A stretch of DNA of 64,000 nucleotides from Desulfosoma sp. (GTDB lineage Bacteria > Desulfobacterota > Syntrophobacteria > Syntrophobacterales > DSM-9756). The stretch's first letter is position 1. The number at the start of each line of letters is the position of its first letter. The stretch spans positions 176,944 through 240,943 of the forward strand of contig JBBFKW010000004.1 of the NCBI GenBank assembly GCA_037481835.1, written 5' to 3'. The position numbers were made by a program. Positions 54,001 through 63,000 of this stretch are shown piece after piece.

Positions 54001-57000
54001 AAGAAAGCCCCTCCTCCCGTCGAAACGTAGCTCACCTTATGATGCACGCCGGCCTTCTTCACCGCACTGGCCGAATCCCCCCCGCCGATGACCGTGAGCG
54101 CCTTGGACGAGCCCAAGAATTGGGCCAAGGCAAACGTCGCTTTTTCGAAAGGCGGCGTTTCAAAGGCCCCTAAGGGGCCGTTCCACACAATGGTGGAACA
54201 CCCGCGCAAGGCCTCCTTGACGGCCTCAACGGTTCGGTCTCCCACGTCGAAAATCGCGGCGTCCTCCGGAACGGCCGTCACGTCCACCACACGGGCTTGG
54301 GCCCCCGATTCCATGTCGGGCGCCACGACCACGTCCACAGGCAGCAGCACGCGCACGTTGCGGCCTTCGGCCAGCTTGAGGAGTTCCAGGGCCTTGGGCA
54401 TGAAGTCGTCTTCCACCATGGATCTTCCCACGGGCCGGCCCTGGGCCTTGAGAAACGTGTTGGCCATAGCCCCACCGATGATCAGGACATCCACCTTGGG
54501 GATCAGGTTTTCCAAAACGCCGATCTTCGTGGACACCTTGGCCCCGCCGATCACCACCGCCAGGGGACGCTCGGGGTTTTCCACCGATTTCCTGAAATAC
54601 TCCACTTCCTTCGCCAGCTGATAGCCCGCGGCGCACACGGGGACGAACTGGGTGATCCCATGGACGGAGGCGTGAGCCCGATGGGACACGGCAAAGGCGT
54701 CGTTGACGTAAACGTCGGCCAGGGAAGCCAGTGCCTTGGAAAAGTCGGGATCGTTCTTTTCCTCTTCCGGATGAAAACGCAGGTTTTCCAACAAGATCAC
54801 CCCGCCTTCCGCGAGGGCATCCACCATGGATCGCACCCCATCGCCGATGCAATCGGGCGCCAGCGGCACGTCCCTTCCCAAGACGCCGGCAAGATGACGG
54901 GCCACGGGCGCCAAGCTCATCTCCGGCACGACCTTTCCCTTGGGTCGGCCCAAATGGGACGCCAGAACGGCTTTACCGCCCGAGTCCATGACCTTGCGAA
55001 GGGTGGGCAAAATGGCCTGAATTCGAGCGTCGTCGGCCACCCGGCCGTCCTTCTTGTCCAAGGGAACGTTGAAATCCACGCGGATAAAGACCCGTTTGCC
55101 CGAAACGTTCACATGATCCAGCGTTTTCATGGCTCGCCCCTCCTGTGTTGTCCGAATCCGGCGGAAACCTTCCCGGGTGCGAAACCGGTCGCCGCGCCGA
55201 TCGTCTTCTAGAGTTGCTTGCCCATGTGCACTGCCAGATCCACCAAGCGGTTGGAATAGCCGTATTCGTTGTCGTACCAGCTGAGCACCTTGACCATGCG
55301 CTTTTCGATAACCTTGGTGAGCGGCGCATCGACGCACGACGAGTACGTGCTGTGGTTGAAATCCACCGAGACGAGCTCTTCGTCCACGTAGCGCAGGATG
55401 CCTTTCATGTGCCCTTCGGCGGCTTCCTTCAGCGCCCCGTTTACGGTTTCCACCGTGGCCTCCGTTTCCACTCGGCAGACCACATCCACAATGGAAACGT
55501 TAGGCGTAGGAACCCGGATGGCCATGCCGTCCAGCTTGCCTTTGAGTTCCGGGATGACTTCCGCCACCGCCGTCGCCGCTCCGGTCGTCGTGGGCACCAT
55601 GGAAAGGGCCGCAGCCCGAGCCCGCCGCAAATCCTTGTGCAGAGCGTCCAGGAGCCTTTGGTCCATGGTGTAGGAATGGATGGTCGTCATCAGGCCGTGC
55701 TCGATGCCGAAACGGTCGTGGAGCACGCGGACGATGGGCGCCAAACAGTTGGTGGTGCATGAGGCGTTGGAGACGATATGGTGTTTCATGGGATCGTACT
55801 GGTCGTCGTTGACGCCCATGACAAAGGTGGCGTCCATGCCCTTGCCGGGAGCCCCCACGATGACCTTGCGAGCCCCGGAATCCAGGTGCTTGAGGCAGCT
55901 CGCCTTGTCCCGAAACCGACCGCTGGTTTCCAGCACGATGTCCACGCCCAGGTCCCTCCACGGCGCCTGGCTCGGATCGCCGACCTTGAGGCACTTGTAG
56001 GCCTTGCCGTCCACATGGATCTGTTGGTCGTCCGCCGAAATGTCCCGGTTCCATGTGCCGTGGACGGAATCGTAGCGCAGCAGATAGGCCAGCTCGGCCG
56101 GGCTTCCCAAATCGTTCAAGGCGACGATTTCCAAAGGATTTCCCCGATCCACGTTCGCTCGAAACACCATCCGCCCGATGCGACCGAAACCGTTGATAGC
56201 GACTCTGATGGCCATGTCCTTCTCCTTTGTCCCCGCAGTTAGCGCAGCATCTTGGCAATACTGACCGTACGGTCCCCCAACATGTTCGTGTAGCTCCCCA
56301 ACTCATTGTCGTACCAGCCGTAGATCACCGCTTGCGTCACCGGAATTTGGATGATCCTCGCCTTTTGCTCCTCACCCAACGCCTTGTCCGCATTCTTGAG
56401 CGCCGCGTCCACATCGAACGGAGGCCCTTGTTCAGAAGAAAGGGCCGCACAGACGTTGAGCACATGGTTCAGGTCGAAGCGCACCGCCGCCGTGCGGGTA
56501 TGGGTCTCGTGACCTTCGATGACCGCGGCCGCCCGGGGCAGCCCGATGATGTCCGACGAGACGTTCTGTTCGTCCGTGTAGAGGAGGTAGCCGTCGGGAA
56601 AGTGGGCCTGGGCCTTGCGGTAGATGTCGTTGATGAGGTTGCGGTTGATGGGATTTTTCATGCTTTCATCTTGGATGAGAACCACCAAGATGATCAAGGA
56701 TCCCGTGGTCACGGGCACCCGGACCGATTCGGCGATGAACCCGATTTCCTTCATTTCCGGGATGACCAGCCCCAACGCTTTGGCGGCTCCCGTGGTGGTC
56801 AAAATGATGTTGTTGAAAACGGAGCGGGTCTTCCGCAAATCGTCCGCTTTGGCTTTGGGAGCCCGGTCCAGGACCTGCTGGGACGGCGTCGCGGCGTGGA
56901 CCGTGGCCATGGACGCCGAAAGAATCCGCATGGGACCGAAATAGTCCAGAAGGGGCTTGACCATGTAGGCCAGGCACGTGGTGGTGCAGGACGCGTGGGA

Positions 57001-60000: not shown

Positions 60001-63000
60001 TCAAAAAGGCGCGCTGTTTTTCTCGGGCTGAGACGCCGTCCATGCCCTCGATCTTCTCTCGGACTTTGTCTTCCGGAAGATCCAACAGGTCCTTCACATG
60101 GTGGATGCCGTCCTCGCCGGAAAAGATCCGGCAAAAGAGGCGGTGCATCTCATCCACAAAGGGCCCGGATTCGGTGATGTCCCGAAAAACTTCGGGCGGG
60201 ACGAATTTCTTGAGCGGTTCTTTGTCCAGGGTATGCCAGAAGTGAAAGATGGCCTCGATGAAAAGCACGATGAGGTTGTTGCTTTCCACGTGGCTCTGCT
60301 TGCGCAGAAAGTGAATGAGCGGGTCCCCCCGTTGGGTGATCTCGTCCACATCCGTGGATACCGCCCGGAGCAGCCCTTCCGCTCCCACCTCGTTGAAATA
60401 CACGGGAAAAAGCTTGGTCAGCTGTTTGACCAAGTTATAGAGAGGCGCGATGGGCGCGTGCAGGAGCAGGCTGACGTCCTTTTGAAAGAGGTCCGTGTCC
60501 CGGACATAGATGCCGCCGAGAAACAGATTGACGATGAGGGCGGAAAGCAGGGTTCGAGTGCGGCGCGGACTCTTGCGGATGAGCTCCAGCCACACGCGGA
60601 TGTTGGTCAGATGCGCCGGGTTAACCTGCACTTGCCAGTACTGGGACACCCCCTTCAGCTTCGGCGTCTGAAACCCCAGCCAAATCACGTGCCGGACAAA
60701 GAACTCGATGAGCTCCCGATCGTCCGTCCCGAGGATTTCCAAGCCGACGGTGCGCACGCAGTGCAGGGCCGCTTCCGGGTAATTGTTGAGGCAGCCTCTG
60801 AGCACCTGGAGGAACCGGGTGAGTCGAGGCCGCAGGATTTCCTGGGATTCCTCGCGGATCCAGCGCCCCACGTCCATGTTCATGGCCCGCAGGGTCTCTT
60901 CGTGGATGGGTTCCAGCCCCTTGGTTTCCATGATCCGCAAGCGCAGCAGCATGCTCACATGGCCCGCCTGCTCCGGCGGGACGGCTCGGCCCACCTTGTC
61001 CGCAAGCTGTTGGTAGGCCCGCACCACGTCTCGAAAATCAGGAAGATCGCACAACCGTTCCACCGCCCGGCGCGGGTCCTTTTCGGCGGCGATGTTCCTG
61101 ACACGCCGCAGAGCCCATTGGTGGTCCGCCTTAAGAAGCGGCGAAAACAGAGGACGCCACGCCTCCACGTTTTCGTCCTCTTGGAGCTGCCGGCTGAGCC
61201 AGGCCAGAGGGTCTTCCCGCTCGGCCCAAAAGGTGTGAGTGACCGTGAGAACGCGTTCCAGGAGGCGGCGCCCTTCCACGAAGGATTCAGGGAAAGTCCA
61301 CAGGGCAAGGCATCGGGCCAGGAGCTTCTTGGGCTGGTAGAAACTTCGAACGACCCACTCGAAAGCCGACGGCTCCAGATCAGACAATCTGGCGAAGCAC
61401 CACCGCAGGAGCCCTCCATGGGCCGCCCCGTGCGGCAGCGGGTCCTCGTCCCCGAAGCTCGGCGCCTCACGGGAAACCTCCCGACACAACTCGGGCGCTT
61501 CCTCGGCGATCTTGAGCCACAAGGCAATGAGATGATCCGCGGCCGCCGCCTGGGTCTTGGGATTTCCCGCATCGGAGAGGGCATGGAGGAAAATTCGGCA
61601 CAACAGAACCACCACACCCGCGCTGTCCCGGTGATCCCGGTACAAGCGGAGGTTTCCTGTGGCGTAACGCCATGCTTCCTGAAGCACGTACGTCCAGTTG
61701 CGGTAACGGTGGTGGTATTCCAGGAGAAGATCCCGGGCTTGTTTCTCCTTTCCAGCGTAGCCCCGTACGGCGTCCACCAGCACCTCATGGCCGGGGTCCA
61801 CCGTCACCGGGACGTTGGTCACCATGAGGTTCTTCATGAGCGCTTCGGATTGCACGCTCGGGCTTTTCGGGCTCTGTATCAACACGACCTCTCTCCATCC
61901 ATGAAGCCGGCTTCCGAAATCAGCCAGCGGGACCTCCACCCACGGTCCATTTCCAGTTCCATGAGCACCGCCGGTTCCCTGATCCCTTCGTAATAATCGG
62001 GCCTCAGCCCCGACGGCCGAAACCCGACGCTTTGGTAGAGTTGCTGGGCCGCGTGGTTGCTGCGCCGCACTTCCAAAAAGGCCACCCGGGCGTTTCTCGT
62101 GCAGGCTTTGTGCAAGGCCGCCAGGAGCAGTCGTCGTCCCACCCCGCGCCGTCTCATGGCGGGGTCGACGGCAAGATTAAAAATCTGCACTTCGTCCGCC
62201 ACAAGCCAGACGCAGATGTAGCCCACGATCCGGCGTCCACCGTCCGCCACGCGCGCCACCAAATTGAGGGCCTGGGGCCGTGTCAGTTCCTCCACGAAAA
62301 AGGATTCCCTCCAGGGATCCACATGGCTGGCCCTTTCGATGTCCAGGACGGCCGGGATGTCTTCAGGCTGCATGGGCTCAATGAGAAGGGGCAGATGAGC
62401 GCTCATGGTCCGACTCCCGTCCCTTGACCTCGGCTTTAGAAGCCAAGATCTCGCTGGCCAAAGAGATATGGCGACGCCCATAGTCCCTCAACACCTCGGC
62501 GGCTTCCCGGACAGGCAGGGAGTTTCGGATTTCCGCGAACTTGATCAGCATGGGAAGGTTGAAGCCGCTCAAAACCTCCACACGGGAACCCGCAAAGGAA
62601 AGGGCCACGTTGGACGGGGTGCCGCCGAAAAGGTCCGTGACGACGATCACCCCGTGTCCGCCGTCCACCTCCTTGAGGGCATCGGAGAGCTCGCGCACCA
62701 TTTCTTCCACCGGAGTGTGTGGATCCATGGAAACGGCCCGCACGGCTTCCAGCGGACCCAAGATGAGCTCGGCCGCCTTGACCATTTCTTGGGCCACATG
62801 GCAATGGGCGGCAACGACCAATCCGATTCTCGACATCTTCGGTCCTGTCTCCTGCTTTTCGGGCGCAGCCCGGCACCAACCGCCTCAGCCATCCAGGTGC
62901 ACGTCGCGATGAAATAACACGGTATAATAACCGGCCGCGCGCACTCTGTCAGCAAGGCGTTCTGCAATCACCACCGATCGGTGTTTTCCTCCTGTGCAGC

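Follow-up and report, generated by a model that had tools for sequence, protein, structure and literature searches.

A barrel-less PPDK-like protein with a distinct N-terminal module, co-inherited with a long GAPDH paralogue in Desulfobacterota

A protein that keeps the phosphate-relay half of PPDK, but not the half that handles pyruvate, raises the question of where its phosphate goes, and its position directly before a second, unusual GAPDH raises the question of whether the two act together. Such a gene, here called DK, lies in the window (the stretch of 64,000 nucleotides from Desulfosoma sp. that was analysed) in the order DK, GAPL, canonical GAPDH, pgk, tpi:

61879..62406, minus strand: rimI-type acetyltransferase (TIGR01575), whose stop overlaps the probable DK start
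57608..61885, minus strand: DK, barrel-less dikinase gene (probable start GTG 61885, 1425 aa; 1415 aa from 61855)
56239..57564, minus strand: GAPL, long GAPDH paralogue of 441 aa, the next gene after DK
55208..56215, minus strand: canonical type I GAPDH (gapA), 335 aa, with Asn-Asp fingerprint (TIGR01534, 438 bits, over cut-off)
53934..55130, minus strand: phosphoglycerate kinase, pgk (PF00162)
53149..53931, minus strand: triosephosphate isomerase, tpi (PF00121)

The rimI-type gene ends an rpoN-hpf-ptsN-rapZ-EIIA run that is seen at related loci. The open frame of DK spans 57608-61939 on the minus strand, and the length of 1415 aa given by the earlier note is indeed obtained from GTG 61855; judged from the sequence, however, the start is probably GTG 61885, which is favoured by a preceding GAGAGG, by the overlap with the rimI stop and by the matching length of homologue P0004 (1425 aa, 92% identical, beginning MLTQSP...). 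Residue numbers below follow the 1415-aa frame. The divergent 441-aa GAPDH that had been described as adjoining DK is present at 56239-57564, and the true PPDK of this genome is, as previously stated, a separate gene (contig C15) with all three PPDK Pfam domains, PF02896 among them at 278 bits. The genome, which is 99% complete, also encodes a membrane pyrophosphatase; no PPDK regulatory protein (PF03618) was found in it.

The DK family comprises 2008 proteins among 8000 candidates. Of its 326 shorter forms (311-991 aa), the 120 listed are for the most part partial proteins without any other Pfam domain. No DK match occurs in the plasmid collection, and the ESM Atlas yielded no clusters but those of the family itself, each under 0.9. 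A literature search, with subscription journals mostly outside its coverage, found no characterisation of the family.

A PPDK-type relay behind a new N-terminal module

The protein can be divided as follows:

60506..61855, minus strand: residues 1-450, helical and solenoid-like (model pLDDT 92.7; conservation profile)
60290..60499, minus strand: residues 453-522, motif 1 (50/50 rows; model helices 495-505 and 512-523)
59717..59788, minus strand: residues 690-713, beta-hairpin with motif 2 (conservation; model)
59186..59626, minus strand: residues 744-890, bundle of helices in which R861 and D874 are invariant (conservation; model)
58067..59086, minus strand: residues 924-1263, PPDK-type ATP-grasp (PF01326, 127 bits; alignment to 9pzl/1kbl)
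57632..58015, minus strand: residues 1281-1408, phospho-His swivel with GGATSH and His1349 (PF00391, 62 bits)

The earlier description of the C-terminal half stands in its main points. Pfam assigns PPDK_N to 924-1263 and, in addition, PEP-utilizers (the swivel) to 1317-1397; GGATSH with His1349 (codon 57809-57811) is kept; and the pyruvate barrel is absent, as there is no match to PEP-utilizers_C (PF02896) and the protein ends seven residues after the swivel stretch. Matches in the PDB are likewise limited to the C-terminal part, at 924-1410. As in PPDK (EC 2.7.9.1; TIGR01828; 1kbl, 9pzl, 5jvn), the ATP-grasp is followed directly by the swivel, and both proteins share the nucleotide-site residues and GG.TSH, including the Thr two before the His: K22, R92, R135, E279/D280, E323, Q335 and R337 of PPDK align with K927, R999, R1042, E1185/D1186, E1243, Q1258 and R1260 of DK. 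The swivel His is kept in 49 of 50 divergent rows of the DK alignment. Conserved residues of this kind point to a putative turnover of ATP to AMP via phospho-His. PPDK differs in that it carries a C-terminal PEP/pyruvate barrel, PF02896, where DK has a 910-residue module at its N-terminus.

The ATP-grasp of DK is much nearer to that of PPDK than to those of PEP synthase or rifampin phosphotransferase: the whole protein scores 390 bits on TIGR01828 (below the cut-off of 843), 79 bits on TIGR01418 and 44 bits on NF041857 for rifampin phosphotransferase (below the cut-off of 999). Swivel dikinases with other acceptor domains, namely rifampin phosphotransferase (5hv1), glucan, water dikinase (GWD; PMC13553574), the aromatic kinases HpeHI and MarK, and HapC/PigC, share with DK the modular combination of ATP-grasp, phospho-His swivel and family-specific acceptor domain, but differ from it in domain order. 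Rifampin phosphotransferase has its rifampin-binding domain between ATP-grasp and swivel, where DK has only about 20 residues.

The N-terminal module of about 910 residues has no Pfam family above cut-off in 1-910, in agreement with the claim that it belongs to no known family. It had also been called all-helical, which does not hold: the structure model places a beta-hairpin with a conserved motif at 690-713. Residues 1-450 are mostly weakly conserved, the exceptions being a short motif near the N-terminus (E46, H49) and the stretch from about 395, where conservation rises. Motif 1 consists of D453, G494, R497, D504, R518, K519 and H522, each found in 50/50 rows, and may form part of an acceptor site; motif 2 (K697 R698 H699 ... 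S706 ... G709) sits on the hairpin, a candidate lid or acceptor-site element, whose tip has the lowest confidence within the core model. Invariant in 50 rows of the module are D453, R497, D504, R518, K519, H522, K629, Y630, K697, H699, S706, R861 and D874, several of them with i/i+4 spacing on predicted helices. Such polar residues and such spacing would fit the binding of a small polyanion plus metal.

Fold searches with this module brought nothing that stood out from generic helical folds. For residues 1-910, Foldseek against the PDB found importin-like solenoids (TM below 0.2), and the best VIA match (Z 10.9, rmsd 5.4 over 194 residues) did not rise above generic helical folds. For the core, residues 395-745, Foldseek had no match at E<=0.001 in the PDB or BFVD, and VIA found only generic helical folds (best Z 6.8, rmsd 2.9 over 89 residues; another Z 6.0); these core matches mostly span the last third, so that residues 395-630 were barely probed alone. 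The absence of fold matches does not prove a new fold. GWD central-domain entries 9HA9/9QVI are not among the matches listed, and the libraries may lack both. On the sequence level, no PDB chain is similar to the module at E<0.05, a PDB profile search with 340-905 gave nothing under E 0.08, and the Pfam matches of 61 DK members are scattered over 21 families, each seen in at most four members. A dikinase-like C-terminal region on contig C10 of the same genome matches the DK core with a probability of 9.6%, which is not significant. The covariation signal that links the swivel to the N-module (Neff 186) amounts to noise, because only 4 of the top 50 pairs are short-range.

Co-inheritance with the long GAPDH

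The earlier note had seen DK and the long GAPDH together in 4 of 30 genomes, and a larger sample makes this far stronger. Among 301 Desulfobacterota genomes, 87 have a strong DK match, the criterion used here; GAPL is present in all 87, and DK in 87 of the 90 genomes with GAPL. In three families of mixed occurrence, the same genomes hold both genes (f5, 4/8; f13, 2/6; f31, 7/10), and in a distant clade GAPL is found in 46 of 75 metagenome loci. GAPL without an intact DK occurs in G284, with a DK remnant of about 68 aa, and in G064, where the DK frame is changed (really or by assembly error); DK was not found in the GAPL genomes G103 and G256. The correlation of DK and GAPL identities (r=0.92 over 65 loci) was computed without a control gene and is not counted as evidence.

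Adjacency is less telling. The two genes lie within 2.5 kb in 71/87 genomes, 18 of these 71 on opposite strands, which agrees with the view that they are usually adjacent, but in one lineage it is the canonical GAPDH that adjoins DK, with GAPL elsewhere. They are apart in 16/87 genomes, in several of which GAPL stands with pgk-tpi and DK with gapA. Since the canonical NAD-type gapA is within 2.5 kb of DK in 42/80 genomes, and gapA occurs nearby without GAPL at 33/80 named loci, proximity by itself does not mark out GAPL. No GapN-like gene was recognised in the recurrent neighbour clusters or in the nine neighbours that were scanned. The earlier proposal, of a dikinase that is tied to the long GAPDH and serves a new acceptor, is partly supported: in its favour are the conserved ATP and His sites, the invariant polar residues of the N-module and the matching presence and absence, not adjacency alone. 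PGK is kept in 86/87 genomes with DK and GAPL, which rules out that DK replaces it, and where the PGK score is low, in five DK genomes, the PGK is divergent but of full length; canonical GAPDH is also nearly always kept.

GAPL itself scores 319 bits on TIGR01534 (cut-off 367) and is 31% identical to the neighbouring gapA. The family (median length about 415 aa) forms its own long-branch clade with several conserved insertions that canonical GAPDH lacks. Its catalytic and phosphate-site residues C193, H223, T226, R247, T258 and R282 are kept in 76/76 sequences, while near the active site SCTTT stands where canonical GAPDH has SCTTN, and S/T replaces Asp in the S-loop. The best PDB match is 8wwz ('GAPDH 2'), Bacillus GapB, and the gluconeogenic GapB-type NADP-GAPDH (PRK07729) is also the best specific NCBIfam match, at 169 bits with a cut-off of 546. 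Like GAPL, the GapB type is a second GAPDH beside an NAD-type one and shares the catalytic and phosphate-site residues; it differs from GAPL in the insertions, the long-branch clade and the co-inheritance with a dikinase. After the second Rossmann strand GAPL has an invariant N40-x-G42-R43 (N-x-G-R in 76/76), where canonical GAPDH has N-D. Asp32 of GAPDH binds the NAD 2'-OH (PMC3728087). GAPL is probably NADPH-preferring, but the call is ambiguous, because the automatic alignment places E44 (E or D in 58/76) in the Asp32 column, where it could take over that role. In the single-contig (closed) genomes G026 and G064, which also encode PGK and two aldehyde:ferredoxin oxidoreductase-family genes each, GAPL is the sole PF02800/PF00044 protein over cut-off, and as the only GAPDH found there it probably acts on triose phosphate. 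A complex prediction for DK 340-905 with GAPL 9-441 scored 0.00 and 0.00, which is evidence neither way.

In the published proteome of Syntrophobacter fumaroxidans the likely DK orthologue Sfum_2063 (1424 aa) is expressed, about 62-fold below the 444-aa GAPDH, the likely counterpart of GAPL, and 69-fold below PGK (summed iBAQ), and 580-fold below gapA; GAPL is about as abundant as PGK.

Possible reactions and their consequences

The best explanation at present, to which we give a probability of roughly 0.38, is that DK is a 3-phosphoglycerate (3-PG) dikinase, converting ATP to AMP and making 1,3-bisphosphoglycerate (1,3-BPG) for a gluconeogenic, probably NADPH-using GAPL, an interpretation that extends to activity, acceptor site, substrate, cofactor and direction. 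The ATP-grasp would cleave ATP and pass the beta-phosphate to His1349, with AMP and PPi as by-products where Pi serves as second acceptor and AMP plus Pi where water does. The swivel would carry the phosphate to a putative cationic site in the N-module, the carboxylate of 3-PG would be converted to 1,3-BPG, and GAPL would reduce this to glyceraldehyde 3-phosphate. The product would be the same as that of PGK (PF00162), which is unrelated to DK in sequence, turns ATP to ADP and forms no phospho-enzyme. DK would work beside PGK and the NAD-type GAPDH, boosting the gluconeogenic PGK step, which is uphill, through AMP formation, much as PPDK or PEP synthase works beside pyruvate kinase. From the values in Table 1 of PMC12525153, the gluconeogenic direction of the PGK step works out at +19.3 kJ/mol, against +9.1 kJ/mol for a Pi-dikinase before PPi removal and -25 for a water-dikinase. 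Several points count against a 3-PG dikinase: with PGK kept, free 1,3-BPG could cycle back through it; Sfum_2063 is scarce for an enzyme of main flux; GAPL persists without intact DK, and the genes are apart in 16/87 genomes; the NADP call is ambiguous, and G026 and G064 have the aldehyde:ferredoxin oxidoreductase-family genes; and no result names the acceptor.

The main rival is a regulatory kinase of GAPDH, which the low abundance of the DK orthologue, some 60-fold below GAPL and 580-fold below gapA, would suit. DK would here sense energy, its phospho-His modifying GAPL or canonical GAPDH and switching between gluconeogenesis and glycolysis according to ATP/AMP/PPi; the solenoid-like first 450 or so residues, the conserved GAPL insertions, the survival of GAPL after DK loss and a divergent DK paralogue family that adjoins a GAF/sigma-54 activator in 3/4 loci are all in its favour. 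We nevertheless consider it unlikely, given that the dense invariant Arg/Lys/His/Asp set resembles a small-anion site, that the swivel dikinases described in the papers covered use metabolites or glucans as acceptors, and that GAPL showed no target residue specific to DK. Scarcity would also suit a low-flux or repair route in which DK makes the acyl phosphate of another acid (e.g. glycerate, 4-phosphoerythronate or a damaged metabolite) for reduction by GAPL, a two-enzyme acid reductase that the distance of GAPL from gapA, its changes near the active site and the retention of PGK and canonical GAPDH would also allow. This is less probable again, because two closed genomes have no GAPDH-family protein over cut-off other than GAPL, and because GAPL often shares an operon with pgk and tpi and equals PGK in abundance.

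The direction could also be glycolytic, with 1,3-BPG, AMP and PPi yielding 3-PG, ATP and Pi, so that pyrophosphate is conserved in glycogen breakdown and gapA is the partner. The PPDK of bacteria and protozoa works in this direction (PMC5371819), the ATP-grasp is of the PPDK and not the PEP-synthase type, gapA is frequently close to DK, and the order glycogen-synthase-like (glgA-like) gene, gapA, DK is common, with a glgA-like neighbour in 27/80 named loci. That neighbour is confined to one lineage, though, no canonical GAPDH was found in G026, which has an intact DK and GAPL, and the tight co-occurrence of DK and GAPL would be left unexplained; we regard this direction as improbable. The same glgA-like neighbour might suggest a bacterial analogue of GWD that phosphorylates glycogen or maltodextrin, and GWD is similar in size and has a helical acceptor domain (PMC13553574). 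Its order is CBM45-CBM45-central-His-ATP, against N-module, ATP-grasp, His in DK, however, and neither DK (P0001) nor 61 members have a carbohydrate-binding or GWD Pfam match; with the neighbour in only 2/75 distant loci and GAPL again unaccounted for, a glucan dikinase is very hard to credit.

DK is an uncharacterised enzyme in which the phosphate-relay half of PPDK is kept and the pyruvate half is replaced by a new helical module, and its pairing with GAPL suggests that central sugar metabolism has a step, or a point of control, not yet described. As databases commonly label family members PPDK or PEP synthase, metabolic reconstructions probably misplace them. If DK is a regulator, GAPDH would be under the control of a protein kinase that derives from PPDK. 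The broader proposal, that trunk glycolysis has a second route, so far undescribed, formed by DK and GAPL, in which an AMP-forming 3-PG dikinase with a new acceptor domain feeds a dedicated NADPH-using GAPDH for gluconeogenesis at low ATP/ADP, or banks PPi in reverse, in anaerobes such as sulfate reducers, syntrophs and relatives of cable bacteria, falls a little short of even odds in our estimate. The step between 3-PG and 1,3-BPG is credited to one enzyme, PGK, which is found in 98.9% of genomes surveyed (PMC12525153); a dikinase at this step would, if true, be a new reaction within the best-conserved part of metabolism and would alter what biomass costs low-energy anaerobes in ATP.

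The dikinase and its N-terminal module

The barrel-less PPDK-like dikinase (DK) and the long atypical GAPDH (GAPL) belong to the first of two rows of genes in the window:

Minus strand, in this order: rapZ, mannose-type EIIA, rimI, DK, GAPL (441 aa), canonical type I GAPDH (gapA, 335 aa), pgk, tpi
44391-49611: consecutive genes whose products we take to be an iron-sulfur subunit, then a membrane subunit, then a molybdopterin oxidoreductase-like protein of 1076 aa, with presumed FmdE-like and molybdopterin-biosynthesis-like genes after them

The earlier note gave DK 1415 amino acids, a frame by which residues are numbered here; the frame is uninterrupted, but the start is probably GTG 61885, because it is preceded by GAGAGG, overlaps the rimI stop and yields 1425 aa, the length of the closest homologue. 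As that note had claimed, Pfam places PPDK_N at 924-1263 and has no match above cut-off in residues 1-910, and the separate true PPDK of the source genome is located on contig C15. Pfam further places a swivel domain at 1317-1397, and a pyruvate barrel was not found by it in DK. Third-position GC is the same in codons 1-910 (0.76) as in the dikinase part (0.75).

Residues ~1-910 (the N-module) are a family of their own. Used as a query, they matched 2008 of 8000 candidate proteins, with lengths of ~1420 aa for most of the 120 matches listed, and 504 entries of a 50%-cluster library, where named members of the 20 clusters looked up include Thermodesulfovibrio, Ca. Delongbacteria, Ca. Marinimicrobia, Bacteroidales and Thermoleophilia. 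The structure model is confident (pLDDT 92.7, pTM 0.90); the region, previously described as all-helical, is mostly but not entirely so, given a beta-hairpin at 690-713. Conservation is poor across residues 100-350, and D453, R497, D504, R518, K519, H522, K629, Y630, K697, H699, S706, R861 and D874 are invariant in all 50 rows of an alignment of 48 full-length representatives (pairwise identity <50%) plus P0001 and P0091. Invariant residues of the module may together build a single anion-binding pocket.

The dikinase half looks functional. DK scores 390 bits against TIGR01828 (cut-off 843) and 79 bits against the PEP synthase model; in the alignment with the PPDK of C. symbiosum, K22, R92, R135, Q240, G254, E279, D280, E323, Q335 and R337 are identical and D321 becomes E1241, positions that we take to form the nucleotide and phosphate site. 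A literature search for this assignment turned up no paper that states it. His1349 is kept in 49 of the 50 rows. The available text of PMC13553574 describes swivel dikinases as a class with an exchangeable acceptor domain, including glucan water dikinase (GWD), rifampin phosphotransferase (RPH) and phenolic phosphate synthetase, and DK would resemble them in its way of working, with the acceptor domain swapped. On the features tested, DK itself is no PPDK, GWD or RPH.

Two other kinds of dikinase-like protein were encountered:

C10:57782-60664 of the source genome (L191:282-3164, minus strand): a second barrel-less protein, 960 aa, with N-terminal PPDK_N, a degenerate swivel under cut-off and ~430 C-terminal residues without Pfam match; presumably flanked by a fabH-like gene and hdrA/mvhD-like genes
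L086:8179-12720, L087:8457-12941, L088:6116-10705, L089:6810-11441: distant DK paralogues of family f56, ~1500 aa, with the altered motifs KLRGDIHW and GGRGAH

GAPL was not found in the genomes of the four f56 paralogues. Because a GAF/sigma-54 activator is the next gene in three of these four loci, the paralogues suggest a sensing offshoot of DK.

Co-inheritance and gene order

DK 401-910 and GAPL were searched against one set of 301 Desulfobacterota genomes, each at least 90% complete. The DK query matched 94 genomes, from which seven matches were removed before counting (partial ones in G077 and G129, the four f56 paralogues and a marginal one with a stop in G142), leaving 87; the GAPL query matched 90 at E<=1e-80. 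GAPL is present in all 87 DK genomes and absent from all seven set aside, which bears out the co-occurrence proposed earlier, although the counts run over related genomes that are not independent; GAPL without a counted DK occurs in three (G103, G256, G284). In mixed families the two genes occupy identical sets of genomes (f5, 4/8; f13, 2/6; f31, 7/10). The claim that they are usually adjacent holds for 71 of the 87, in which they lie <=2.5 kb apart (on opposite strands in 18), and not for the remainder, where they are farther apart.

In 75 metagenome loci of a distant clade, drawn from the best 80 of 675 stretches and partly repeats of one organism, GAPL was seen in 46, canonical GAPDH alone in 10 and neither in 19 (many short). 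Of 586 loci from named genomes, the best 80 contain GAPL in 22, gapA alone in 33 and a glycogen-synthase-like gene in 27. DK thus stands behind gapA in Desulfobulbia-like genomes, with GAPL elsewhere. This GAPL lies beside pgk-tpi in both loci opened (G012, G255), and the order rimI-gapA-DK-GAPL-pgk-tpi in L029 and L077 unites both pairings.

The glycogen-synthase-like gene (PF08323) immediately precedes gapA-DK in the Desulfobulbia-like genomes (L052:5195-6820 and 26 more loci), a ~280-aa gene without Pfam family sometimes intervening (L058:5940-6776). Loci of the distant clade (L119:4991-6004, L121, L123, L126, L138, L139, L157) carry a member of a fast-evolving gapA subfamily immediately upstream of DK, often yielding a gapA-DK-GAPL trio. 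GAPL and pgk are duplicated with equal scores in G097, a single contig (C1:505491-507924 and 1777503-1779936), and DK adjoins one copy only.

DK is reduced to ~68 codons in G284 (L104:7607-7810), which keeps both GAPDHs with GAPL intact, and carries an apparent frame change near residue 590, in an A-rich run, in G064 (L181:2933-7094), again with GAPL intact.

GAPL as a probable GAPDH

In GAPL C193 and H223, which we take from GAPDH numbering to be catalytic, and T226, R247, T258 and R282, likewise assigned to the phosphate site, are invariant in 76/76 sequences. N-x-G-R follows the second Rossmann strand in all 76, and N-D in 62 of 62 canonical neighbours. Since N-x-G-R replaces N-D, and Asp32 of GAPDH contacts the NAD 2'-OH (available text of PMC3728087), GAPL likely uses NADP, but not certainly so, because the alignment sets E44 in the Asp32 column.

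Of the 87 genomes with DK and GAPL, 80 were searched for canonical GAPDH, which is present in 77. In G026 and G064 (both 100% complete in a single contig) and in G065 (93%, 280 contigs), no PF02800/PF00044 protein other than GAPL exceeds the cut-off, in searches that also recovered archaeal controls. PGK is encoded in G026 and G064, and each of them also has two aldehyde:ferredoxin oxidoreductase-family genes; for GAPOR and GAPN, the accessible part of PMC12525153 describes an exclusively catabolic role. Most simply, GAPL would be a genuine GAPDH capable of the gluconeogenic direction. PGK is found in 296/301 genomes and in 86/87 with DK+GAPL, the one exception, G033, being an assembly of 360 contigs. 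This retention of PGK, like the damaged DK of G284 and G064, weighs against a straightforward account of the pair. In five DK+GAPL genomes (L186-L190; G241, G239, G287, G096, G159) the only PGK found is full-length and low-scoring (~270 bits vs ~520 usually).

Possible roles of the pair

The best fit is that DK would act as a 3-phosphoglycerate (3-PG) dikinase supplying GAPL, to which we assign a probability of about 0.38. Estimates from Table 1 of PMC12525153, on our own reading that it writes reversible reactions in the glycolytic direction, put the cost of forming 1,3-bisphosphoglycerate at +19.3 kJ/mol through PGK, +9.1 with a Pi-dikinase as long as PPi is not removed, and -25 with a water-dikinase; a membrane pyrophosphatase is encoded in the source genome. 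That the same chemistry runs in reverse is doubtful. The supplement of PMC8691401, as far as available, reports expression in S. fumaroxidans of Sfum_2063 (1424 aa, named 'pyruvate phosphate dikinase', 7 unique peptides), together with Sfum_2062 (444-aa GAPDH), Sfum_2061 (336-aa GAPDH) and PGK, at summed iBAQ values of 2.3e5, 1.4e7, 1.3e8 and 1.6e7, respectively. From length and gene order we infer that Sfum_2063 and Sfum_2062 are the DK and GAPL orthologues; on this assignment and these data DK is produced, at ~1/60 of the GAPL level during growth on propionate, a ratio that makes a one-to-one complex or a main-flux role less likely under this condition.

Two alternatives stay in play: DK could regulate GAPDH in the manner of a kinase, which is possible if somewhat unlikely, or, slightly less likely, DK and GAPL could form an acid-reductase pair for some other substrate. 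A glucan dikinase is very improbable. An action of DK at or on the GAPDH step, as a 3-PG dikinase or in another way, is quite probable.

No study of the DK family was found in the literature searched, most subscription papers and bioRxiv supplements being outside reach, and the family is unmentioned in the available portions of PMC4046663, PMC8691401 (main text), PMC8100219 and PMC5371819. DK and GAPL are a real and widespread enzyme pair, apparently unstudied as yet, at the centre of carbon metabolism.
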